From Bdellovibrionota bacterium (GTDB taxonomy: Bacteria > Bdellovibrionota > Bdellovibrionia > Bdellovibrionales > JAEYZS01), in NCBI GenBank assembly GCA_963169515.1, contig CAUJEF010000007.1:12546-76545 (forward strand): a DNA stretch of 64,000 bases. The letters run 5' to 3'. This document shows, one piece after another, positions 21,055 through 37,540 of this stretch (position 1 is its first letter; each line of letters opens with the position of its first letter). The position numbers and the translations under genes were made by a program. The notes beneath the pieces are model-generated. The model did not search any database, was not told where the DNA came from, and worked only from the letters and a program-made list of their open reading frames with translations.

Positions 21055-21175
21055 GAGTATCCTCTTGTTTTTATATTGGATAAGAAGAACAATTAATAAT
21101 CATAAAGTAGTGCGAATGAAAAGAAAGAGTTTTGGTGTCGGTATTTTTCGTGTTGCAGCCGCGTTATGAGGAATT

Positions 21176-21934
21176 ATGTTTGAACTAGAATTGCAGCAAG
21201 TCTCACATCAATTTAGCCATGATGAACTGTTGAAAAATGTTAGCCTTCAAATTCGAAAAGGCGAAAAATGGGTGTTGATCGGACCTAGCGGCCAGGGGAA
21301 AACTACGTTGCTCAAAACCTTGGCCGGGATCCTTGCTCCCACAGAGGGGCGGGTTTTAATTCAGGGCCAAAACCTTTTGGCATTACGCGGCGAAAAGCGC
21401 GATCAGTTGCAGCGGAAAATGGGGATGCTTTTTCAAAAAAATGCCTTATTTGACTCACTTACGGTTGCAGATAATGTCGCTTTTCCGCTACGCGAAACAA
21501 CGCGGTTGCCAGAAAGTGAAATTCAAAGGCGAGTTCAATTTTATCTTAATTCTGTGGGCTTGGAACACGTACTTCATAATTTTCCAGATGAAATCAGTGG
21601 CGGTATGCAAAAACGATTGGGAATTGCACGAGCACTTGCCCTGGAACCAGAGATTATTTTTTATGATGACCCTACGGCGGGCTTGGACCCTATAACGAGC
21701 CGGAAGATTATCGAGTTGATTTTGGATTTACAGAAAAAAAACAATTCTACCCTTGTAGCAATTACAAATGACATGAAACGAGCCTATCAAATGGCAGATC
21801 GCATAGGTTTTGTGCTAAGGGGAAATTTCATTTTAACCGGAACAGTGGAGGAGACCAGGCAACACTCCGATCAGCGAGTTCAACAATTCATTCGGGGCGC
21901 ACTCCAGGGTCCGCTGACCGCAGGGGTTTCATGA
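21176..21934 (+). CDS. MlaF-like ABC ATPase, degenerate catalytic motifs
   Basis: Walker A is GPSGQGKTT and the signature is ISGGMQKR. Walker B is IIFYDDPTAGLDP (Asp instead of the catalytic Glu). The H-loop is LVAITNDM (Asn instead of His). Confidence 0.85.
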   Translation: MFELELQQVSHQFSHDELLKNVSLQIRKGEKWVLIGPSGQGKTTLLKTLAGILAPTEGRVLIQGQNLLALRGEKRDQLQRKMGMLFQKNALFDSLTVADNVAFPLRETTRLPESEIQRRVQFYLNSVGLEHVLHNFPDEISGGMQKRLGIARALALEPEIIFYDDPTAGLDPITSRKIIELILDLQKKNNSTLVAITNDMKRAYQMADRIGFVLRGNFILTGTVEETRQHSDQRVQQFIRGALQGPLTAGVS

Positions 21935-22653
21935 TTGAATTCAAAAATGTTGTGAAATCATTTGGACAAAAGACAGTTTTAAATAAGGTTTCATTTAAGA
22001 TTGAAAGGGGTCAGATAGTTTTTATTTTAGGCATATCGGGGACTGGAAAGTCTGTAATGCTGAAAAACATTGTTGGGCTCTTGACCCCCGATGCGGGAGA
22101 AATTTGGGTAGATGGAGTCGATGCTGCAAAATTATCTGAGGAGTCCTATGGACCAATTAGAAAAAAATGCGGAATGGTATTTCAACAACCAGCCTTATTT
22201 GATTCCATGACTGTTTTTGAAAACATTGCGTTTGGATTGCGGAAGCATTTCCAATTGCCTGAAAGCGAAATCAAATCGCGTGTCTTAAAAGCGCTATCGT
22301 TGGTAAATTTGGATGACATCGGGGAAAGGTTTCCTTCGAATATTTCATATGGCATGCAAAAGCGAGTCAGCCTGGCAAGAACCATTATTATAGAGCCCGA
22401 GATCTTGCTTTTTGACGAACCAACAACTGGGTTGGATCCGATAACAACAAACGCCATCAACAGTTTAATTCAAGATCTTTCGCGAAGGTTGAAGACAACG
22501 TCATTGGTTGTAAGCCATGATATGAACTGCGCCCTTGCAATCGCAGACCGGATTATTGTTTTAGATCGAGGCATGATTGTAGAGGATGGAACTGTGGAGA
22601 GCGTTCGAAACAGTAAGGTTCCGCTGGTAAAAGATTTTTTGGCTGAGGTTTGA
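21931..22653 (+). CDS. mlaF: MlaF-like ABC ATPase, canonical catalytic motifs
   Basis: Walker A is GISGTGKSV, Walker B is ILLFDEPTTGLDP and the H-loop is LVVSHDM. The signature is atypical (ISYGMQKR). A 4-nt overlap links it to the upstream ATPase. Confidence 0.85.
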   Translation: MIEFKNVVKSFGQKTVLNKVSFKIERGQIVFILGISGTGKSVMLKNIVGLLTPDAGEIWVDGVDAAKLSEESYGPIRKKCGMVFQQPALFDSMTVFENIAFGLRKHFQLPESEIKSRVLKALSLVNLDDIGERFPSNISYGMQKRVSLARTIIIEPEILLFDEPTTGLDPITTNAINSLIQDLSRRLKTTSLVVSHDMNCALAIADRIIVLDRGMIVEDGTVESVRNSKVPLVKDFLAEV

Positions 22654-23432
22654 TGGTGTTTATGCGAATCAAAGTTTTAATAGATGATATTGGTGGAGGG
22701 ATTCTGTTCCTTGGGCAGATTATTTTAACAGCCATCCGTACCCCGGCGAAGATAGACCTCACCTTGGAGCAAATTTACAAAGTGACGGCCCAAAGTTTTG
22801 CTACAACCGCGATGGCTGGATTTTTTGTCGGGGCAATAATGACAATCCAGTTTACCATGCAATTAAATGAATTTTCGGCTCTAGAATACTTGGGCGGAAT
22901 TTCAACCAGCGCAACCCTTCGTGAAGTGGGGCCACTATTAATTGCATTTATGCTGAGTGGGAAGGTTGGGGCATTCACTGCGGCGGAGCTTGGAACCATG
23001 CGCGTAACCGAGCAAATAGATGCGATTCGATGCCTTGGGGCAAACCCAATCCGTGAAATCATAGTACCGCGGTTTTTTGGAATTGTAACGGCAAGCTTTG
23101 TCTTGCTTTCGGGTGGGCTGGTTTTATCTATTATAGGGGGGCTTTTGATGGGGGGGCTCTTTGCCGAAGTTTCTTTCCAAGAATATGTTCGGCATATTCC
23201 GACCCTTGTGACGATGCCATCCATATTTAATGGACTGTTTAAAAGCTTTGTTTTTGCGTTCTTAATCGCAACAATTTGCACCTACCGTGGGTATACGGCA
23301 ACGGGTGGGGCAAAGGGTGTGGGCAAAGCCGTTTTACAAACAGCGGTTGCTTGCATGATTGCCATTGTGCTTTCAGACTGGGTGACAACTGTTTTTACCG
23401 ATACGGCGTTGACGCTAATAAGGGGCGAATAA
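22653..23432 (+). CDS. mlaE: MlaE-family ABC permease (paralog 1)
   Basis: Polytopic. It has LREVGPLLIAFMLSGKVGAFTAAELGTMRVTEQIDAIRCLG, typical of MlaE/YrbE. The ATG overlaps the upstream TGA (TGATG). Confidence 0.85.
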   Translation: MVFMRIKVLIDDIGGGILFLGQIILTAIRTPAKIDLTLEQIYKVTAQSFATTAMAGFFVGAIMTIQFTMQLNEFSALEYLGGISTSATLREVGPLLIAFMLSGKVGAFTAAELGTMRVTEQIDAIRCLGANPIREIIVPRFFGIVTASFVLLSGGLVLSIIGGLLMGGLFAEVSFQEYVRHIPTLVTMPSIFNGLFKSFVFAFLIATICTYRGYTATGGAKGVGKAVLQTAVACMIAIVLSDWVTTVFTDTALTLIRGE

Positions 23433-23433
23433 A

Positions 23434-24213
23434 TTGGTGTTTGTTGATTCCATCGGCTTAATTTTAATACAAGCGGGCAAAACGCTAGCTGATTTTCTGG
23501 GAATGTTGAAAGAAACATTCCAGGCGCTATTTCGACCACCGTTTCGTGTTGGGCTGATTATCCAACATATAGAATTTATTGCGAACAGAAGCGTCGGGAT
23601 CATCGTTTTCTGCGTTAGTTTTGCTGCAATGGTGACGATTATGGAATCATCCTATCACATGAAATTAGTTTTGCAGGAAGACTCATTGGTGCCGGGCTTT
23701 GCGGCGTTACTTATATTGAGAGAATTGGGATCTGTGTTAGCAGCATTGCTTTTAACTTCTAAAATTGGAGCGGGAATTACTGCCGAAATAGGTACCATGA
23801 CCGTAACCGAACAAATAGATGCGCTAAAAATGCTGAGTATTAATCCTGTTCAGTACTTAGTTGTTCCAAGATTAATTGCGTGCATATTAAGTGGGTTAGC
23901 GCTTGCTGTAATTTCGAACCTAGTGTGCTTGATTTCAGCGATGGGGATAAGCGTTGCCAATCTTGGAATGTCCACGGGGTCATTTCTTTTAGCAATGAAT
24001 CGGTTTGTCATTTTCCAAGATTTGGTGTTTGCTATTATAAAGGGCGGCGTTTTTGGAGCGGTGATCCCGCTTATTGCGTGTTATTGGGGGTTCCGCTGTA
24101 CTGCGGGAGCACAGGGCGTAGGGCAAGCAACAACACGAAGTGTAGTAACGGCTTCGGTTGCGATCATCGTGTTAGATTTTGTGATGTCGTGGATTTTTGC
24201 CCATTTTTATTGA
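23434..24213 (+). CDS. MlaE-family ABC permease (paralog 2)
   Basis: It has LRELGSVLAALLLTSKIGAGITAEIGTMTVTEQIDALKMLS. The TTG start lies 1 nt after the upstream stop. Confidence 0.8.
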   Translation: MVFVDSIGLILIQAGKTLADFLGMLKETFQALFRPPFRVGLIIQHIEFIANRSVGIIVFCVSFAAMVTIMESSYHMKLVLQEDSLVPGFAALLILRELGSVLAALLLTSKIGAGITAEIGTMTVTEQIDALKMLSINPVQYLVVPRLIACILSGLALAVISNLVCLISAMGISVANLGMSTGSFLLAMNRFVIFQDLVFAIIKGGVFGAVIPLIACYWGFRCTAGAQGVGQATTRSVVTASVAIIVLDFVMSWIFAHFY

Positions 24214-24246
24214 TGGTTTGGTTTTCGAGTACGATTTAGGGTGAAT

Positions 24247-25023
24247 ATGAAAATAGAAACTAAGGTTGGCTTGCTTTTTTTGATTTCGATTTTATTTGTG
24301 GTTGGGTTTGCCTATCTGTTGGGCGATATGAACCCATTCGCCCGCACTGAAATATTAAATGTAACATATAATTACGCAGGAGGGATTCAAGAGGGCTCCC
24401 CTGTTCGCGTGATGGGTATCAAAGTGGGCAAGGTTCAACGCATAGATTTTGAACCGGAACAAAAAGACGAAAAGGGGCAAGAGGTTAAGTTGCGGCTCAA
24501 AATATCTATTGATCGAAAAGCGTGGGAAACGGTTCGCAAAGACAGTCGGTTTTATATCAACCTAGCGGGCGTTATTGGCGAGAAGTTTATTGAAATTACT
24601 CCGGGATCGATGGCAAGTGAAACATTCCGCCCTGGCGACACCGTTCGGGGCGAAGATCCGCCAAGGATTGATCAGCTGATTTCGCAGAGCTATGGACTTG
24701 CCGGAAAGATACTAGAAATGGTTGAGAATAATGAGGGCAGCATTACAAATACCATCGGAATGATGAATCAATTGGTGTCGAATTTAAATAAAACCCTTAC
24801 TTTGATCGATAAGAACAACAAAAATGGAGAAATAGGACATCTTTTGAACAATTTGGTCCAAATTACAGACGATGTTCGTGTAGTGAGTAAGCGTTTACGT
24901 TCCGAGGAGACAGGCAAAACAATCGATTTGATGCATAAATTAATATGGAGATTGGATGAATTGGATGCCAAAACAATAAAAAAATTCCTTCAAGAGGACG
25001 GAATTCGTGCAAAACTTTTTTAG
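24247..25023 (+). CDS. mlaD: MCE-domain substrate-binding protein (MlaD-like)
   Basis: An N-terminal TM segment (KVGLLFLISILFVVGFAYLL) is followed by an MCE core (GSPVRVMGIKVGKVQRI) and a C-terminal helical extension. The track start is 24241 (GTG). Confidence 0.8.
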   Translation: MKIETKVGLLFLISILFVVGFAYLLGDMNPFARTEILNVTYNYAGGIQEGSPVRVMGIKVGKVQRIDFEPEQKDEKGQEVKLRLKISIDRKAWETVRKDSRFYINLAGVIGEKFIEITPGSMASETFRPGDTVRGEDPPRIDQLISQSYGLAGKILEMVENNEGSITNTIGMMNQLVSNLNKTLTLIDKNNKNGEIGHLLNNLVQITDDVRVVSKRLRSEETGKTIDLMHKLIWRLDELDAKTIKKFLQEDGIRAKLF

Positions 25024-25573
25024 CTTCTTAGTTGTCTTGTTTGTTTCTCAAGCGGGCTTAGCGGCAGTCCTTGTTGAGGGCACCTCAAGCTCAGGGATGG
25101 AAATGCGTAAAACAAGACGCGTCGGTATTGGCCTTGTTGCGGCAGGCGCGGCAGGTATGGCGGGAACCAGCTTAGAACTCAACTTTTCTGAGAAGAGCGG
25201 AATTGTACTGGGATTTGGAGGGGGCTCGCCTTCGTATCAGACATTTGGAGTGCAATACAAAGGTGTTTTTGTTGGAGAATGGTTATTACCTTACTATACA
25301 TTTGGGTATACGCACTGGGAAAATTATGGACGAAAGGGGCCGATTACCGAAACCAATCCTAATTTTCTTGCCGACAAATTCTTGACGATGAAAGAAAAGC
25401 AGGAAGGGAAAATAAATGAAAACCTTATTTTTCCTGGGATCGGTATCCAATATGTGAAGCTCGGCGGATTTATGGCGGGGTCGTCACTTTATTTGGAGCT
25501 ACAAATACTTATGGATATTGGCGATTTTGTTGCGGCAGCAACGGGCACATTTGGGTACCTTTACTATTTCTAA
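25007..25573 (+). CDS. Small secreted protein, probable outer-membrane beta-barrel
   Basis: 188 aa with a GTG start overlapping the mlaD-like gene by 17 nt. It has a signal peptide (FLVVLFVSQAGLAA), Gly/aromatic-rich alternating segments and a C-terminal ...GYLYYF. Confidence 0.55.
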   Translation: MQNFFSFLVVLFVSQAGLAAVLVEGTSSSGMEMRKTRRVGIGLVAAGAAGMAGTSLELNFSEKSGIVLGFGGGSPSYQTFGVQYKGVFVGEWLLPYYTFGYTHWENYGRKGPITETNPNFLADKFLTMKEKQEGKINENLIFPGIGIQYVKLGGFMAGSSLYLELQILMDIGDFVAAATGTFGYLYYF

Positions 25574-25604: not shown

Positions 25605-25638
25605 CAAAAAAGCCCCTGGATTTTGCCAGAGGCTTTTC
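25605..25638. terminator. Bidirectional rho-independent terminator
   Basis: aaaaaagcccctgg-attttg-ccagaggcttttca has a 9-bp stem with one mismatch. An A-run lies on one side and a T-run on the other, so on the minus strand the stem is followed by tttttt. Confidence 0.7.
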
Positions 25639-25667: not shown

Positions 25668-25751
25668 TTACTTTCTTTTTTTAGTAGCTTTTTTCTTAGT
25701 AGCTTTTTTCTTAGTAGCTTTCTTCTTTGTTCCTTTTTTCTTCTTTGCCAT
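25668..25751 (-). CDS. 27-aa poly-lysine micro-protein (MAKKKKGTKKKATKKKATKKKATKKRK)
   Basis: Absent from the ORF track because it is under 60 aa. Manual translation was used. The SD taAGGAGGaaac precedes the ATG at 25751 and the TAA stop is at 25668-25670. A strong terminator lies ~30 nt downstream on the same strand. Confidence 0.55.
   Translation of the reverse strand: MAKKKKGTKKKATKKKATKKKATKKRK
25681..25725. repeat. 15-bp tandem repeat x3 (encodes KKKAT units)
   Basis: ttagtagcttttttc / ttagtagcttttttc / ttagtagctttcttc is read directly. Confidence 0.9.
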
Positions 25752-25897
25752 GTTTCCTCCTTAGGGTCACATTTTTTGTTACAGCGATAACTGTCGCTTT
25801 CAATTCAAGGTTTGCATCCACGCAAGCTCACGTCAACCAGTTTTTTTTGCGAGCAAGTCCTTTTTTTGCAAAATCATTTGTTAGCAAGGGTGAAAGT

Positions 25898-26641
25898 ATG
25901 TTTTTCAGGTTGTTGATTACATTTTTCGGATACATATCCGTGTGTCGGATGTACAAAAAAGAAAACGAAAAAGGAATTTTATCGGGAAACCTTCTCAAGA
26001 AATGGTTTTTTGTTACAGTTATTGCAACTTTTTTTGTGTTTTTCGAATTTTTTGGTAGTGATTTTGCATATTGGACAAGCTTCTTTTCTTCACTTTTGTT
26101 TTTGCAGGTTACAATTTTTGTCACACGTACTTACAGAGAATCTAAATTTCGCTGTGAATTCCTGAATTTTATGGATCGTGTGGTTCTCCAGATGCAAACT
26201 GGACGTTCGTTTCGCGCTTCATTGCTGTCTGCGAACGAATCAACGACGGATTTTTTTAAACCAAAGCTTGAAAAAATAATTGAAAATGTTTTTTTTGGAA
26301 GAAATTTGCAGAAAATGAATAAAAACGATTTAATTTCTGAAATTTTGGAAGAATTTTCGATTATTGACCAAGCCCCACATCGATCTTTGCAGCGAGTACT
26401 CGCTTTTCGCCGCCAACTTAAAATTGAAGAGGAAATTCGACGTAAGTCCGGACAAAAGCAACGGCAAATACAAGTGCAGTCATGTATCTTGTCCTTATTA
26501 TATGTATGTACGCTTGCCTTTTTATATTTTCAATTCGACTGGCGTAAAAATATTGCGATCATACTGATTTCGCTTGGTTTTTTTCTGACCGGGACAGTTG
26601 TTGCGTATAAAATTGGTCGGAGAAATCTATGGAAAGCTTAA
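25898..26641 (+). CDS. TadB-like T2SSF-domain membrane protein (divergent)
   Basis: From Met MFFRLLITFFGYIS (ATG 25898). N-terminal TM segments are followed by a cytoplasmic helical domain (FMDRVVLQMQTGRSFRASLL...) and then RRQLKIEEEIRRKSGQKQRQIQVQSCILSLLYV plus C-terminal TM segments. This layout resembles TadB/GspF-type domains. The track ORF start at 25727 is an upstream open-frame artefact. Confidence 0.5.
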   Translation: MFFRLLITFFGYISVCRMYKKENEKGILSGNLLKKWFFVTVIATFFVFFEFFGSDFAYWTSFFSSLLFLQVTIFVTRTYRESKFRCEFLNFMDRVVLQMQTGRSFRASLLSANESTTDFFKPKLEKIIENVFFGRNLQKMNKNDLISEILEEFSIIDQAPHRSLQRVLAFRRQLKIEEEIRRKSGQKQRQIQVQSCILSLLYVCTLAFLYFQFDWRKNIAIILISLGFFLTGTVVAYKIGRRNLWKA

Positions 26642-27057
26642 TTTCCTGCTTGCAGTGGGCGTTGCGCATTCGACTTGCATTGGAATGTGGCGATTCCATA
26701 CGAGCTGCAATTGGAAGAAACCACAAAAAATCGGAATTCGATTTGAAATTGCAAGAATGGGTATTTTGTTTGGATCAAAAGGGAGATGCGACAAAGATTT
26801 TAACGCGTGTAGAGATATATGAACGTGCATTTTTTGAACTTATTCGGTCGGGGTTGAGCGGAAATAAAATTTATGAGCATCTTGTGGAGTATGAAAAAGA
26901 ACTCAAAGAAAAGTGTTTAGACGAAATCCAACGTGAAATAGATCTAATGCCATTTAAATTGATGATTCCGGTATTGTTATTTCAGTTTCCAGCCTATTTA
27001 CTTCTAGTTATGGGGCCTATTGTACAACAGTTTTTGGAAACCCTGGGGGGACAATGA
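26629..27057 (+). CDS. Short TadC-like T2SSF-domain protein
   Basis: 142 aa. It has LALECGDSIRAAI...FFELIRSGLSGNKIYEHL...EIQREIDLMPFKLMIPVLLFQFPAYLLLVMGPIV, a T2SSF-like C-terminal pattern. A 13-nt overlap links it to the upstream gene. Confidence 0.45.
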   Translation: MESLISCLQWALRIRLALECGDSIRAAIGRNHKKSEFDLKLQEWVFCLDQKGDATKILTRVEIYERAFFELIRSGLSGNKIYEHLVEYEKELKEKCLDEIQREIDLMPFKLMIPVLLFQFPAYLLLVMGPIVQQFLETLGGQ

Positions 27058-27482
27058 CGTTTTATATTTTATTTATGATTCATTTTGCTAAAGCGGACGA
27101 AATGTCTGATCTGCGTGAAAAATTGCTCTTGCAGGCAACCAATCAAACAACAATGAGCCAGAGCATGGAGCGATACAAAAAAATGCTATCACTTCAGGCG
27201 CAGTGTGAGTTTGAGCTAGAAAATAAAGATTTGCCAGGCAGTTGCTATGCATTTGTCCATTTTAAGCAAGGATTTGGAATTATTACCTCTGAAACAGAGG
27301 CAGAGCAGAAGTCGAGACTCGATAGGATTTGCATTCAAAGCGCGGAAAGGGGTGCAAAAGCGCCTGAGCACGACGAATTTCTTGGCAAAGAGTGTCAATC
27401 TTTGGTGAAAGCGAAAATAAAAAAACAAAATTATGTTTTGGAAGAGTCGAAACCAGAGGAATTAATTTTAGGAACACAGTAG
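27054..27482 (+). CDS. Secreted 4-Cys helical protein, unknown function
   Basis: 142 aa with a signal-like N-terminus (MTFYILFMIHFAKA) and four Cys. ATGA overlap with the upstream gene. Confidence 0.5.
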   Translation: MTFYILFMIHFAKADEMSDLREKLLLQATNQTTMSQSMERYKKMLSLQAQCEFELENKDLPGSCYAFVHFKQGFGIITSETEAEQKSRLDRICIQSAERGAKAPEHDEFLGKECQSLVKAKIKKQNYVLEESKPEELILGTQ

Positions 27483-33898: not shown

Positions 33899-36800
33899 AT
33901 GATACGCTTTGGAATCAAGTTTTTATTGGTGTTCACGTTGATTATCCAGCTCAGTGTTGGTTCAACCCCGTTTGCTTTTGCGGCTGCGGGTGATGGTTCA
34001 GATTCAAATCCGCTCACAAAAGCGGTCGTAGAAAATAAGGAACATGTAGCGCTCTGGGATAAAGCTGCTCAGGCGATGGAATCTGGGGCCGAGCTTCCAA
34101 ACCAAGACCCAAATCCATTTAGCCTTGGTAACCAAAGCGTAGAGATTAACGGACGAACCTATTCTTTCAACGATTACCATGTTTCGTTGCCGCCAGTATC
34201 CATTACCGGATTACGGGTCGTGTACGACGAGCAAAATAAGCGGCTCGTCCTGGAAGGTCTTCGGGGCCAAAATGATCGCGGATTAAATGGAACGGTTGTG
34301 GCACGTCATTTTATTCCAGACGTTGAAGTTGCAGCCATGGTTCGTGATGAAGAAATTCTGACGATTGTTGATTCTAAAGGATCTTTGCATGTCGTCTCAA
34401 TGGATTACGTAGCAAAAAACATTTTTAGTTCCCCTATCCCTGTATTTAAAAATTTGTGGACATCATCGGAATCGCTTGAAGGACAAAAACTTTCAGTTCA
34501 TATCGCTACGCCGGGATTGCGGCCGCCTGAAATACAAAAAAACTCGGTTGTTCCCCTGGATGAAAAGGGAAATATTCATATTGAGTCCGGGGACTTGTTT
34601 GTTTTTAAAGGCGAAGGTTCACAAAGGGAGCTGGTGGGTGCGTTTTCGCGAAAAGTAACTTATGAAAAAATGATTCGTGGGTTTAAGTCGCTGCAACAGA
34701 TGGTATTACAAATATATCCAGCAAACGTCGAACAAGCGCTTGCGCGATCCATTGTTTCAGAATTAGAGGGTCTGGAAAATAAGTCACAGGCGGAAATGGA
34801 CCCCAATACAATGCCCGCAGCGATGCGAAGAGCCCTTCTTCATATTTCAAACAAACAGATGCTAAGCATAGGCGGAAGCATACATCAGCAACAATCACGG
34901 GTTGGTCGCCAGTTTCATTTGCTTGTCCAAAATGATTGGGAAAAAACATTTGACGAGCTTGAAAAGATCGCGCGTGCGCAGTCTGAAAAGCTCGGGATTG
35001 AAGCAAGTGGTAATCAAGACTCGGATGCGGCCTACAAAAAAAGTCAAATCGATTCATTTCTTGAGGCCGGAGATCTTTCAACAATTTGGCAAAACCTCTA
35101 CCGACAATCAACATTGATGCCGACCATGAAGGTAACAAAGGAACAGAAGGCGTGGGTCAAAAAGGCAAAAGAAATTTCATTTAAATATTTAGCACCCATG
35201 ATGGTGGTTGGCGCAGCCTTTGGTGTCCCATATGCGTACGAGCATTTTGAAACCCTAAGGCAAGTTCAAGCGCTAACGTGGATGTATGAAAACGCAATCC
35301 CGGATGTTGTGAAAGAAGGGGAGTATCGCCTTCCTCTTTTTGCAAGTACGGTATCTCTCCTTGCGCTGTGGCCGGGGTCAGTTTCTATATCATGGGCAAT
35401 GGGCCGTGGGCTGAAGGCGCTTTCTGCCGCCGTGTCGAAGAGTACCTCAAAAATCGCACAAGGCATTCGTGACGTAGCAAAACAATGGGTTCCGCTCACA
35501 AACTGGCAACGGATTACAAGCTTTGGTATGAGATTTTATGGAAATCTTATTTACCCGGCAGTGCAAACGGTTCTTAACAAGGCCCTTCGCCAACCGACAA
35601 TGATTTCGGCATGGAACCAGGGCCTGAACCCATTTAAGACTATAGCGCCTGGTTCTGTTATTGGTCAGAAAATAGGGCTTAAAAAACCAACGCGCGCGGG
35701 GGTATTAAACCCTTTTTCTCGGGGAGATGACAGAGAGCAAGTTAAAAACACACAACTTCAAATCCAGGCAATGTTAGCGGAAAGAAAGCTTCGCATTGAA
35801 AATTTATCTCTCAAAATTGCAACTTTAGTGGTCGCAGAAAAGGAAAAGGTAGATCCGGCAACAATAGACATGATCATGAGAGGAGCTCTGGATCCAGCAA
35901 AGCTGGAAGAAATATTTAAAAGTAAAGATCTACAGCGGGAATGGGAGCGAACCCAAGATACCGTTGCGCGGTATTTAGACGGTCTGGGCGAGGGATATTT
36001 TGATCAAGACACGAAAGAAATATCACGTGATATGGTCGCAAAGCACTATGCGTATGCAAAAGACATTGTGAAAAAAATCAAAGAGCAGAATAAAAAACGT
36101 CGATATATAGATCATCTGTGGCATCAGTCACGCATCGGGTTAAAAAAATCACGGGAAACATTATTTAATTTAGGTGTTCAAGACAGTCAGTTTTTGAAAA
36201 CAATATTTACGAACAAATATGTATCCGAGCAAACGGAAAGAGGATTTGTATCTGATCATCTGATGGTGGTCTTAATAATGGCGTTTATCGGTGAGCGGGC
36301 AGATCTGTCTGATCCAAGAAACCTAGCGGCGAATGCAAATGAGGCGCTTTGGACAAATCCACCGCACTGGTCAGATGTTGGCTCTAACACGTACGCACAT
36401 TTTTTTGTGGCAGGGTCCAAGCGGGCGTTAGTATTTCAATCTGTAAAACCGGAAGATTCTTCTGCATATGAGCCCGTAGAATATTTATGGACAGATAGTT
36501 TGAATCGCAGAGAGGGCATTGGTCGGACTGCTTACCAGTGGGTTCGTAACGTAATAGATCCGCGCCGCTCTGATATTGGACAAATTGCCTTAAAAACTTT
36601 TTTCAAGCGACTTACAACCATTCAAGCTGCTTTTGTAATGACGCTGGCTTTTAGAATGGGATTAGGGGGGCAAGATTTTGGTCAAGCGATGCTGGGATGG
36701 TTATTATTTTTCTTTGCGGGTCAGTGGTATTATGCGTGGCCGTGGGACGTTATTGATCGGGGGACACATCTTGAGGGCGAGCGCATCGAGGAAATGAAAA

Positions 36801-37540
36801 TGGAATTGAAGAAGGCTTTTGCCACAGTATCGCAAGGGTTGCGCGATCAAAACCAAGAAAGATCTTTGGAGTCAATTCGTGAAGGACAAACGAAAATATT
36901 TGAATTGATGAAAAGATATAACCCAAAGGCACTCGAGCTATTAACCAAAACTATGTCTACAGCCGGATTAAATGAACTTCACGATCAATATAAGTCTGTT
37001 TTTAATCAGGCTTCGATGAAAAACTTAAGCCAGATGGCCCGCTTGTACGTGGCAATTCAATCCGGAGACGAATCAAAAATTCAAGAGGCCGCATCAGAAT
37101 TAAAAGAGGCTCTTGCTTCGGGTGGAAATTTATCCCCTGAGGTAGAAAAGCTAAATGCGTCTGCACTTCTTCAGTTCTCTCTTAAAAATTCTCCAGTTTT
37201 TACATCGGCCCATCCGTCTGTTTCATGGGTTGCCGTGTTTGGTCTGGGCGCAGTTCTTACGACGATTTTAGCAATTCCACTTTCAGTTAAGTCTTTTGAT
37301 CCCAACTTCTTAAGTTGGGGGAATGTTGGATTTTGGGCGGCAGTGAGTTTGGCTGCGTACTGGCTGTATAATAAGACATTATCGAAAAACGGATGGGCGG
37401 CTCAGGGCTTAAATCGGATTGATGCGTGGTGGGCACAGAAAAAACTTCAGAAACAAGCGGATACCAAGACACCAAACGCTAGCCCATTAAATCTAACTTC
37501 ACGAGAAAGAGTTTGCGTCGAGTTGTTCGCTACGCAATAA
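33899..37540 (+). CDS. 1213-aa polytopic membrane protein, no recognisable domain
   Basis: Signal peptide (FLLVFTLIIQLSVGSTPFAFAAAG) and a ~430-aa N-terminal soluble region. At least 7-8 hydrophobic segments are present, e.g. YLAPMMVVGAAFGVPYAY, AMLGWLLFFFAGQWYYAWPW, VSWVAVFGLGAVLTTILAIPL and WGNVGFWAAVSLAAYWLY. They are separated by charged helical regions. Confidence 0.6.
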   Translation: MIRFGIKFLLVFTLIIQLSVGSTPFAFAAAGDGSDSNPLTKAVVENKEHVALWDKAAQAMESGAELPNQDPNPFSLGNQSVEINGRTYSFNDYHVSLPPVSITGLRVVYDEQNKRLVLEGLRGQNDRGLNGTVVARHFIPDVEVAAMVRDEEILTIVDSKGSLHVVSMDYVAKNIFSSPIPVFKNLWTSSESLEGQKLSVHIATPGLRPPEIQKNSVVPLDEKGNIHIESGDLFVFKGEGSQRELVGAFSRKVTYEKMIRGFKSLQQMVLQIYPANVEQALARSIVSELEGLENKSQAEMDPNTMPAAMRRALLHISNKQMLSIGGSIHQQQSRVGRQFHLLVQNDWEKTFDELEKIARAQSEKLGIEASGNQDSDAAYKKSQIDSFLEAGDLSTIWQNLYRQSTLMPTMKVTKEQKAWVKKAKEISFKYLAPMMVVGAAFGVPYAYEHFETLRQVQALTWMYENAIPDVVKEGEYRLPLFASTVSLLALWPGSVSISWAMGRGLKALSAAVSKSTSKIAQGIRDVAKQWVPLTNWQRITSFGMRFYGNLIYPAVQTVLNKALRQPTMISAWNQGLNPFKTIAPGSVIGQKIGLKKPTRAGVLNPFSRGDDREQVKNTQLQIQAMLAERKLRIENLSLKIATLVVAEKEKVDPATIDMIMRGALDPAKLEEIFKSKDLQREWERTQDTVARYLDGLGEGYFDQDTKEISRDMVAKHYAYAKDIVKKIKEQNKKRRYIDHLWHQSRIGLKKSRETLFNLGVQDSQFLKTIFTNKYVSEQTERGFVSDHLMVVLIMAFIGERADLSDPRNLAANANEALWTNPPHWSDVGSNTYAHFFVAGSKRALVFQSVKPEDSSAYEPVEYLWTDSLNRREGIGRTAYQWVRNVIDPRRSDIGQIALKTFFKRLTTIQAAFVMTLAFRMGLGGQDFGQAMLGWLLFFFAGQWYYAWPWDVIDRGTHLEGERIEEMKMELKKAFATVSQGLRDQNQERSLESIREGQTKIFELMKRYNPKALELLTKTMSTAGLNELHDQYKSVFNQASMKNLSQMARLYVAIQSGDESKIQEAASELKEALASGGNLSPEVEKLNASALLQFSLKNSPVFTSAHPSVSWVAVFGLGAVLTTILAIPLSVKSFDPNFLSWGNVGFWAAVSLAAYWLYNKTLSKNGWAAQGLNRIDAWWAQKKLQKQADTKTPNASPLNLTSRERVCVELFATQ

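Follow-up and report, generated by a model that had tools for sequence, protein, structure and literature searches.

A Bdellovibrionota Mla/MCE-type operon with paired ATPases and paired permeases probably encodes a heteromeric transporter with one consensus and one degenerate ATP site

The window analyzed here, a contiguous stretch of 64,000 nucleotides from a Bdellovibrionota genome, carries a tight operon of six genes on its forward strand (positions 21176-25573), encoding two MlaF/MceG-like ATPases (NBD1 and NBD2), two MlaE permeases (E1 and E2), one MCE/MlaD protein and one small exported protein (P6). The open reading frames lie exactly where a first-pass annotation, made from the sequence alone, had placed them, and Pfam matches (ABC_tran twice, MlaE twice, MlaD) agree with the gene content proposed there. 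The 5' intergenic region (21055..21175, forward strand) is shared with a divergently transcribed isocitrate dehydrogenase gene and includes a Shine-Dalgarno sequence, GAGGAA, at 21169-21174, ahead of the NBD1 ATG; a promoter scan of this region returned sites no more numerous than in shuffled sequence. On the 3' side, a 13-bp, GC-rich hairpin (25607..25638, not assigned to a strand) follows 34 nt past the P6 stop and is probably the operon boundary; it was scored as a minus-strand terminator in the scan and may thus be bidirectional.

Most gene junctions are overlapping or nearly abutting, with the NBD2 start on the NBD1 stop (ATGA), the E1 ATG on the NBD2 stop (TGATG), a gap of 1-4 nt between E1 and E2, and an overlap of 17 nt between the MCE gene and P6, which starts with GTG. 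The earlier proposal that all genes are translationally coupled is overstated, as at the E2/MCE junction a spacer of 27-33 nt carries its own Shine-Dalgarno sequence. Across the five core genes dN/dS is 0.02-0.04, showing strong purifying selection on all of them.

The two ATPases deviate from consensus at different motifs. NBD1 (F'; 21176..21934, forward strand, 252 aa; ABC_tran, 6.9e-38) is a degenerate MlaF/MceG-like ABC ATPase with Walker A GPSGQGKT, signature ISGGMQKR, Walker B IIFYD-D165 and H-loop AIT-N198-DM. Asp165 (21668-21670) thus occupies the position of the catalytic Glu and Asn198 (21767-21769) that of the H-loop His, with the Walker A Lys42, the Q-loop Gln87 and the signature ISGGMQ (S141, G142) intact. 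This gene is not decaying and is under purifying selection (dN/dS = 0.043). NBD2 (F; 21931..22653, forward strand, 240 aa; ABC_tran, 9.1e-35; dN/dS = 0.021) has canonical catalytic residues, with Walker A GISGTGKS, Walker B LLFD-E163 and H-loop VVS-H196-DM, and keeps Lys40, Gln85, Glu163 and His196; its signature reads IS-Y140-GMQKR, with Tyr140 (22348-22350) in place of the first signature Gly. For both NBDs the best NCBIfam model is MlaF (NF008809), at 192 and 199 bits, far under the equivalog cut-off of 441, and the top PDB matches are MceG and MlaF, with MceG first for each. We aligned the NBDs with characterized homologues, and the gapless phmmer alignments to Mycobacterium smegmatis MceG (8FED) and Acinetobacter baumannii MlaF (7D06) place D165, N198 and Y140 opposite Glu, His and the first signature Gly, respectively. 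Because the alignments are gapless, misalignment of the three substitutions is excluded, and the characterized homodimeric references carry Glu, His and SGG at these positions. The motif states that the first-pass annotation had read for both proteins (Walker B Asp, H-loop Asn and a kept SGG in NBD1; canonical Walker B and H-loop with an SYG signature in NBD2) are therefore correct.

Both permeases belong to the MlaE family (PF02405), with E1 on the forward strand at 22650/22653/22656..23432 (start at TTG 22650, ATG 22653 or GTG 22656; 258-260 aa; 2e-60) and E2 on the same strand at 23434/23437..24213 (start at TTG 23434 or GTG 23437; 258-259 aa; 3.6e-61). Their PDB matches are MlaE and YrbE1A/B, with proteobacterial MlaE scoring above both YrbE1A and YrbE1B. 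The permeases therefore probably duplicated independently of those in mycobacterial Mce1. Identities of 31% between E1 and E2 and 41% between NBD1 and NBD2 indicate that the duplications are old.

The sole MCE gene of the operon (24241/24247..25023, forward strand, 258-260 aa) matches MlaD (PF02470; 3.1e-17; score 63 bits, cut-off 25.1) and encodes an N-terminal transmembrane helix, an MCE domain at about residues 39-122 and a conserved C-terminus ending in EDGIRAKLF; a low-confidence single-sequence model predicts about 110-130 aa of helices and no barrel. P6 (25007..25573, forward strand, 188 aa) is an exported protein that begins with a signal peptide, ends in YYF and is predicted to form an 8-stranded outer-membrane beta-barrel. 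Its AF2 model (pLDDT 85) has Foldseek matches to the OprF N-terminal barrel, Ail, OmpX, OmpA and OmpW, which bears out the initial description of a small barrel-like exported protein.

The three deviations would all fall on one composite site of an NBD1/NBD2 dimer, as had been proposed from the sequence of this locus. We estimate the chance of such a coincidence in one genome at about 0.25, and the evidential weight rests on comparative data rather than on the single-genome pattern. Among orthologues from Bdellovibrionales genomes together with the window (80 species-level genomes), all 81 NBD1 sequences (80 orthologues and that of the window) carry DD and TND, and all 78 NBD2 sequences carry SYG, DE and SHD, with the same gene order at about 75 loci. 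Seven operons represent deeper lineages (L084, L085, L087, L091, L092, L093 and L094; NBD1 42-49% identical), and in all seven the first NBD keeps SGG and has lost Glu and/or His, and the second combines S[Y/F]G with Glu and His; NBD1 retains Glu in L093 and His in L087. The reciprocal convergence on one composite site is thus borne out well beyond the window. E1 precedes E2 at all related loci, and every locus has one MCE gene per operon.

Within the compared sequences, the consensus site (Walker A, Walker B and H-loop of NBD2 with the signature of NBD1) shows zero deviations. The degenerate site varies in its decay, with N, S, T or H at the H-loop, D or E at Walker B and Y or F in the partner signature, and in relatives the residue at the H-loop changes freely (N, S, T, G or P). 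A constant consensus site next to a variable degenerate site is the pattern expected of one constrained and one relaxed site. A wider set of 216 NBD domains, drawn from the 150 nearest cluster representatives, contains no case of Tyr or Phe at signature position 3; Asp follows the Walker B Asp in 25 of the 216, and 24 of these 25 keep their own SGG signature. In a neighbor-joining tree, NBD2-type sequences form a clade (bootstrap 94%), and NBD1-type operon copies group with most other Asp-type representatives, in a group without bootstrap support.

Taken together, these observations lead us to read the operon, with a probability of roughly 0.7, as encoding one heteromeric F'/F-E/E'-D6 lipid transporter of the Mla/MCE type (type VIII) with one consensus and one degenerate ATP site. 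We infer the heteromer and its asymmetric hydrolysis, and what is said of cargo, transport direction and the role of P6 is meant in the same conditional sense. The NBD1-NBD2 pair would sit on an E1-E2 permease heterodimer under a homohexameric MCE ring, the diverged permeases determining the side on which each ATPase docks, and P6, as a dedicated small outer-membrane barrel, would join the transporter in most lineages. Arranged head to tail, the ATPase dimer would form two composite sites. In the consensus site, Walker A, Glu163 and His196 of NBD2 would face the intact SGG signature of NBD1, hydrolyze ATP and drive the cycle. In the degenerate site, Walker A, Asp165 and Asn198 of NBD1 would face the S-Tyr140-G signature of NBD2; since Lys42, Asp164 and Gln87 are intact, this site should still bind Mg-ATP, with hydrolysis presumably slow or absent and the nucleotide acting as a "glue" or allosteric ligand, the mode of action of TAP1/2, TM287/288, TmrAB and ABCC proteins. 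Some activity may persist there, as Asp is chemically capable of weak general base action.

That both sites are competent, with Asp, Asn and Tyr as tolerated lineage-specific variants in a functionally symmetric heterodimer, would fit this chemistry and the retention of the NBD1 His in L087 and Glu in L093. We nevertheless consider a symmetric dimer very unlikely, because all three deviations invariably share one composite site while its counterpart stays free of them, and because the H-loop drift among relatives fits a relaxed site; in PMC7544095, moreover, loss of the catalytic Glu is treated as the accepted hallmark of a degenerate site. A still smaller chance is left for two independent homodimeric transporters (an NBD1 dimer with an E1 dimer and an NBD2 dimer with an E2 dimer, or the swapped pairing) that share or compete for one MCE hexamer. 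Canonical Mla is F2E2, and the gene order F'-F-E-E' alone leaves the pairing undefined. An NBD1 dimer, however, would be without the catalytic Glu at both sites, and in most lineages without the H-loop His as well, and both signatures of an NBD2 dimer would deviate, such that a fully consensus site arises only in the mixed dimer. The single MCE gene per operon at all loci and a reciprocal pattern kept over deep divergence also speak against two F2E2 transporters, the outcome that the first-pass annotation had named as contradicting its heteromer.

An NBD2 homodimer on an E1/E2 heterodimer, with NBD1 as a separate accessory or regulatory ABC protein (an ATP sensor, a substitute for MlaB, or a subunit serving several transporters), appears unlikely to us, although mycobacterial Mce1 has this very layout, with MceG2 as an ATPase homodimer on the YrbE1A/B permease heterodimer. 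NBD1 can indeed be separated from the operon by 0.5 to >6 kb: NBD1 and NBD2 are set apart by 0.5 to about 4 kb of unrelated genes in several Bdellovibrio genomes, and two loci (L052 and L078) have no partner NBD within 6 kb. Asp-type NBDs also occur as orphans (L086, Myxococcus, Corallococcus), which indicates that F' is not tied to the operon in every case and may serve a different function, and no MlaB/STAS gene, for which NBD1 might substitute, was found in the operon or the scanned open reading frames of the window. Against this reading, a bulky Tyr or Phe would stand in both signatures of an NBD2 homodimer, leaving both sites nonconsensus, S[Y/F]G was seen only alongside an Asp-type or H-loop-degenerate partner encoded upstream, and in the neighbor-joining tree the F' clade does not include the Myxococcus orphans. 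Furthermore, the invariant SGG of NBD1 and the strong purifying selection on its gene are hard to explain unless its signature completes an active site in trans, as it would in the F'/F heterodimer.

Heterodimeric exporters (TAP1/2, TM287/288, TmrAB, LmrCD, BmrCD and the ABCC/CFTR proteins) follow the same logic of one degenerate and one consensus site, with one NBD having lost the catalytic Glu (often replaced by Asp) and the H-loop His and the signature of its partner deviating. In TM287/288, the signature of the degenerate site deviates from LSGGQ (PMC5216877). The first-pass annotation had called this asymmetry a hallmark of heterodimeric exporters, and the comparison is apt in that the present system would work like them, but it is not a member of their fold class: these exporters are type IV, with a six-helix transmembrane domain fused to the NBD, whereas here the NBDs are stand-alone proteins of 240-252 aa that would act on separate MlaE-family proteins, a scaffold of type VIII topped by an MCE ring in the periplasm.

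Among MCE systems, proteobacterial MlaFEDB (Escherichia coli, A. baumannii, Pseudomonas aeruginosa; 6XBD, 7D06, 7CH8) shares with the present operon the MlaE-family permease fold, an MCE/MlaD protein of a single domain and, going by the best-scoring models, an MlaF-like ATPase, and its components are among the best PDB and NCBIfam matches of the operon proteins. MlaFEDB has, however, one F and one E gene whose products form homodimers with both ATP sites consensus, in contrast to the two F and two E paralogues found here, and it needs MlaB (STAS), MlaC and MlaA-OmpC/F; we found no MlaB, MlaC or MlaA in the operon, its flanks or the other scanned open reading frames of the window. The present operon differs further in its longer MlaD, with predicted helices, and in having its own small predicted outer-membrane barrel. 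With mycobacterial Mce1 (YrbE1A/B, MceG2, Mce1A-F; 8FED) it has in common a heterodimeric MlaE-type permease pair, predicted in our case. In Mce1, by contrast, the ATPase forms a homodimer in which both sites are consensus; it carries a C-terminal extension of about 120 aa and is encoded outside the operon, and there are six different MCE proteins. The actinobacterial layout of two yrbE genes, six mce genes and a shared remote MceG homodimer thus differs from the two permease genes, one MCE gene and two operon-encoded ATPases observed here. Since heterodimeric permeases are already known in MCE systems, the architecture, which had been called unusual as a whole, is new only in its ATPase asymmetry. 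We found no published description of a two-F/two-E layout with a degenerate ATP site for the Mla/MCE-type class.

The long transenvelope MlaD of Veillonella parvula (Grasekamp et al. 2023, PMC10665443) belongs to a similarly minimal MlaEFD-type system without MlaA, MlaB and MlaC, and both systems combine an MCE protein with a helical extension and an outer-membrane beta-barrel, the latter two features being predicted here. In V. parvula the MlaD C-terminus carries a fused barrel of about 10 strands, and there is one gene each for F and E, whereas the predicted 8-stranded barrel of the present system is encoded by a separate gene overlapping the end of mlaD. A more far-reaching and rather doubtful scenario would be that Bdellovibrionota possess an obligately asymmetric transenvelope MCE machine, in which a nonhydrolytic, permanently ATP-loaded F' site serves as gate or sensor, either setting directionality or committing the complex to a single-stroke cycle, and the conserved C-terminal strand of the MCE hexamer (EEG[IV][KR]A[KR][IL]F) docks on P6, as a split version of an ancestral long MlaD. 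If so, such a machine possibly serves high-flux lipid traffic in predatory growth. None of the 26 P6 relatives is a fusion of MlaD and a barrel. P6 is present in 45 of 61 related operons, being missing from about a quarter, and 5 of 22 members of its family show weak Pfam matches to OMP_b-brl.

The operon occupies window positions 21176-25573 and consists of six consecutive ORFs on the plus strand, divergent from the icd-mdh-sucCD-ndk block. It encodes two MlaF/MceG-like ATPases, NBD1 (F'; 21176-21934, 252 aa, Pfam ABC_tran 6.9e-38) and NBD2 (F; 21931-22653, 240 aa, ABC_tran 9.1e-35), for both of which MlaF is the top NCBIfam model at a score far under the equivalog cut-off. These are followed by two MlaE-family permeases, E1 (22653-23432, 258-260 aa, Pfam MlaE 2e-60) and E2 (23437-24213, 258-259 aa, MlaE 3.6e-61), a single MCE protein (24247-25023, 258-260 aa, Pfam MlaD 3.1e-17), and the small exported protein P6 (25007-25573, 188 aa), which is without an above-threshold Pfam match. 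The first-pass annotation had described all genes as translationally coupled, and the operon is indeed compact, with an ATGA overlap at the NBD1/NBD2 junction, a TGATG overlap between NBD2 and E1, a gap of 1-4 nt between E1 and E2, and a 17-nt overlap between MCE and P6; that description is nevertheless slightly overstated, since E2 and MCE, the sole loose junction, are separated by a 27-33 nt spacer carrying its own Shine-Dalgarno sequence. Downstream of P6 is a GC-rich hairpin of 13 bp (25607-25638). A search of the operon, its flanks, and the other scanned ORFs of the window gave no MlaA, MlaB or MlaC, and a promoter scan gave no enrichment relative to shuffled sequence.

Each ATP site of an ABC protein is shared between two NBDs, one contributing Walker A, Walker B, and the H-loop and the other its signature. 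The motifs of NBD1 read GPSGQGK42T, LFQ87, IS141G142GMQKR, IIFYD164-D165-PTAGLD, and AIT-N198-DM, and those of NBD2 GISGTGK40S, VFQ85, IS-Y140-GMQKR, LLFD162-E163-PTTGLD, and VVS-H196-DM. In phmmer alignments to Mycobacterium smegmatis MceG (8FED) and Acinetobacter baumannii MlaF (7D06), which themselves carry Glu, His, and SGG, D165 aligns to the catalytic Glu, N198 to the H-loop His, and Y140 to the first signature Gly; the alignments are gapless across the motifs, which rules out misalignment and confirms that the substitutions are correctly placed. Because each site pairs one NBD with the partner signature, the three deviations all belong to the NBD1-Walker/NBD2-signature site, as the first-pass annotation had proposed, and the NBD2-Walker/NBD1-signature site is fully consensus at its motif positions. 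The chance of three deviations sharing one site in a single genome is about 0.25, so it is the comparative data, not the single genome, that decide the question of chance.

The GTDB species genomes that were scanned yielded 80 loci, almost all of them carrying a Bdellovibrionota label (such as Bdellovibrionales, Pseudobdellovibrionaceae, and Bdellovibrio, including B. bacteriovorus), whose NBD1 is 58-66% identical to that of the window. The order F'-F-E1-E2-MCE is found in approximately 75 of the 80, with some contigs stopping short of the MCE gene. Counting the window with its orthologues, NBD1 carries Asp-Asp and Thr-Asn-Asp in 81/81 cases and the SGG signature throughout, and NBD2 carries S-Tyr-Gly, Asp-Glu, and Ser-His-Asp in 78/78. 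An all-against-all search of representatives revealed a broader family of MlaF-like NBDs with the Walker B DDPTAGLD and an H-loop residue that drifts (N, S, T, G, P, H). Genomic context was obtained for eight distant members of this family, with 42-49% identity to NBD1; seven lie in a complete F'-F-E-E'-MlaD operon (L084, L085, L087, L091, L092, L093, and L094), and the contig of the eighth (L095) ends just past the start of a second, overlapping NBD gene. In all seven of these deeper operons the signature of the first NBD is an intact SGG; its Glu is lost in six (L093 retains it) and its His in six (L087 retains it), and the second NBD invariably combines S[Y/F]G, with Tyr or Phe for the first Gly, with Glu and His (7/7). 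Among 216 NBD domains from the 150 nearest cluster representatives, none has an aromatic residue at signature position 3, and SGG is kept in 24 of the 25 that have Asp after the Walker B Asp. Across orthologues and deeper operons, one site is thus invariant and the other variably decayed, a sequence pattern that would be expected of one constrained and one relaxed site. L085 and L091-L094 are metagenomic operons, and we limit the claimed spread of the system to Bdellovibrionota. Operon-bearing public MAGs labelled Bacillota, Proteobacteria, Deltaproteobacteria, or Sphingobacteriales (L014, L058, L070, and P0088) have an operon typical of Bdellovibrionota, so these bins are probably mislabelled or their labels outdated.

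With respect to age, NBD1 and NBD2 are 41% identical (ungapped) and E1 and E2 31%. A neighbor-joining tree puts the S[Y/F]G NBDs in one clade (94% bootstrap) beside canonical MlaF-like sequences, and in it F' sequences cluster with most other Asp-type representatives, in a grouping without bootstrap support. Across seven unsaturated genome pairs, dN/dS was 0.043 for NBD1, 0.021 for NBD2, 0.023 for E1, 0.024 for E2, and 0.028 for MCE. By these ratios NBD1 is about twofold more relaxed than NBD2, yet clearly maintained; paralogue identities of 41% and 31% and dN/dS of 0.02-0.04 exclude a recent duplication or a decaying pseudo-ATPase.

The two ATPase genes are not adjacent everywhere. Within the genus Bdellovibrio, a hot spot for insertions lies between NBD1 and NBD2: B. 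bacteriovorus encodes a 131-aa membrane protein there, and in other strains unrelated genes take up 1.6 to ~4 kb. The junction sequences concerned are at locus positions 6830-7225 in L008/L019, ~6750-8360 in L009, ~6750-9860 in L036, and ~6750-10710 in L062. At L052 and L078, a second ATPase or MlaE is absent within 6 kb. Orphan Asp-type MlaF-like ATPases occur in Myxococcus sp. MxC21-1 (L088, 8001-8798), in Corallococcus caeni (P0230, where Pro replaces the H-loop His), and at L086 (8001-8780), and no MlaE or MlaD gene was found near any of them; the myxobacterial proteins are orphans that the tree places apart from the F' clade, and we therefore do not count them as an instance of this system in another phylum. 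Fused double-NBD proteins of ~550 aa (P0121-P0125 and L089/L090, 6001-7668), with a deviant signature in the C-terminal half (ISSGQ, ISNGE, or VSAGE), ranked top of the representative search solely because the scores of two domains are summed. We dropped them as "Rosetta stone" evidence, since P0121, the one with context examined, is an orphan adjoining mreB-mreC-pbp2-rodA, without Mla context.

Both permeases have full-length matches among the solved structures, to MlaE and to YrbE1A/B, and both score higher against proteobacterial MlaE than against YrbE1A or YrbE1B, which points to a duplication separate from the one behind the actinobacterial permease pair. In the MCE protein, a TM helix and a single MCE domain are accompanied by ~110-130 residues predicted to be helical in a single-sequence model that serves as an outline only (pLDDT 53). 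Its last nine residues, EEG[IV][KR]A[KR][IL]F (window 24985-25023), are strikingly conserved across lineages (L001-L094), even where operons are only ~55-60% identical overall. Their alternating pattern suggests a beta-strand, which could dock onto P6 or else, as known from Mce1, contribute to a mini-barrel of six strands. P6 orthologues, annotated solely as hypothetical proteins, all have a signal peptide and all terminate in YYF. A confident AlphaFold2 model of P6 from a 26-sequence alignment (pLDDT 85, pTM 0.76) retrieved 8-stranded outer-membrane barrels in Foldseek (the OprF N-terminal domain, Ail, OmpX, the OmpA TM domain, and OmpW), and no P6-MlaD fusion was found among the 26 relatives. 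P6 comes after MCE in 45 of the 61 loci with sufficient downstream sequence, making it a frequent accessory rather than a core part; of the other 16, 12 have next an ORF like the window's downstream membrane protein, and for 4 none was found.

Most likely, the operon encodes a single F'-F-E1-E2-(MCE)6 complex in which one site would be hydrolytic and the other would bind ATP but be impaired in hydrolysis, with the two permease paralogues setting the orientation of the ATPase dimer. As to cargo and direction, we infer that lipid would travel through the MCE ring and then the helical extension, with P6 as a probable outer-membrane partner in most lineages. An alternative on the pattern of Mce1, in which NBD2 would pair with itself on E1/E2 and NBD1 would be an accessory, would accommodate the split junctions in Bdellovibrio, the missing partners at L052 and L078, and the existence of orphan Asp-type NBDs; we consider it unlikely, since an NBD2 homodimer would bear the aromatic signature at both sites and NBD1's own SGG is invariant and under purifying selection. 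That both ATP sites are active is highly improbable, as it leaves unexplained why the deviations always fall on one of them. We give still less credence to two independent homodimeric transporters, either of which would have two defective sites and which would have to make do with a single MCE gene.

Degenerate ATP sites have been described mainly in exporter-type ABC proteins (TAP, CFTR/ABCC, TM287/288, and PDR/ABCG), of which TAP1/2 and ABCC parallel the logic seen here. To our knowledge, every structurally characterised MCE/Mla transporter relies on an ATPase homodimer in which both sites are consensus; MlaFEDB is F2E2D6B2, with one F and one E gene, whereas the window operon has two of each. 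PMC7544095 terms loss of the catalytic Glu the hallmark of a degenerate site, and in TM287/288 the degenerate-site signature departs from LSGGQ (PMC5216877). The F'/F system copies this logic of heterodimeric exporters but stands outside their fold class: the window operon encodes an Mla/MCE-type transporter that would act like a degenerate-site heterodimeric ABC protein. Mce1 shares a heterodimeric permease (YrbE1A/B) with the window operon, but its MceG ATPase is a homodimer (PMC9882608). In Veillonella parvula, E and F are encoded by one gene each and the long MlaD carries a fused barrel (PMC10665443), whereas the barrel of the window operon, P6, is a separate gene. The survey in that paper excluded MlaF on grounds of annotation uncertainty, and the NBDs studied here go under generic names, either "ABC transporter ATP-binding protein" or [quoted passage not shown]. 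A full-text search of the literature readable without subscription turned up no account of an MlaF that is heterodimeric or degenerate.

A conserved F/F'-E/E' system would mean that lipid transporters of the type VIII scaffold, too, have evolved a division between a working and a structural ATP site. Such a system would offer a naturally asymmetric model, in which each ATP site and each permease half can be mutated separately, and which could inform how ATP hydrolysis couples to lipid movement, and its direction, in Mla-like systems. Because B. bacteriovorus, a predator amenable to genetics, carries the system, it is directly testable. That the barrel has a gene of its own is also relevant to the proposed ancestry of Mla systems as transenvelope bridges.

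Elsewhere in the window, a 1213-aa plus-strand ORF (33899-37540) has no Pfam match at E<=1e-5. Convergent with the 3' end of the operon lies a 27-aa lysine-rich ORF on the minus strand (MAKKKKGTKKKATKKKATKKKATKKRK, 25668-25751), of which the hairpin, read as 25638-25607, is scored as the terminator. This small ORF overlaps the annotated start of a 304-aa ORF (25727-26641), whose N-terminus may therefore be mis-called. The latter is the first of three co-directional ORFs (304, 142, and 142 aa; 25727-27482) downstream of the operon without a Pfam match, which are kept in three near-identical contigs (L081-L083). An ORF resembling the 304-aa one comes after the MCE gene in 12 related loci, and orthologues of the 304-aa ORF show a weak T2SSF (TadB/C-like) match.
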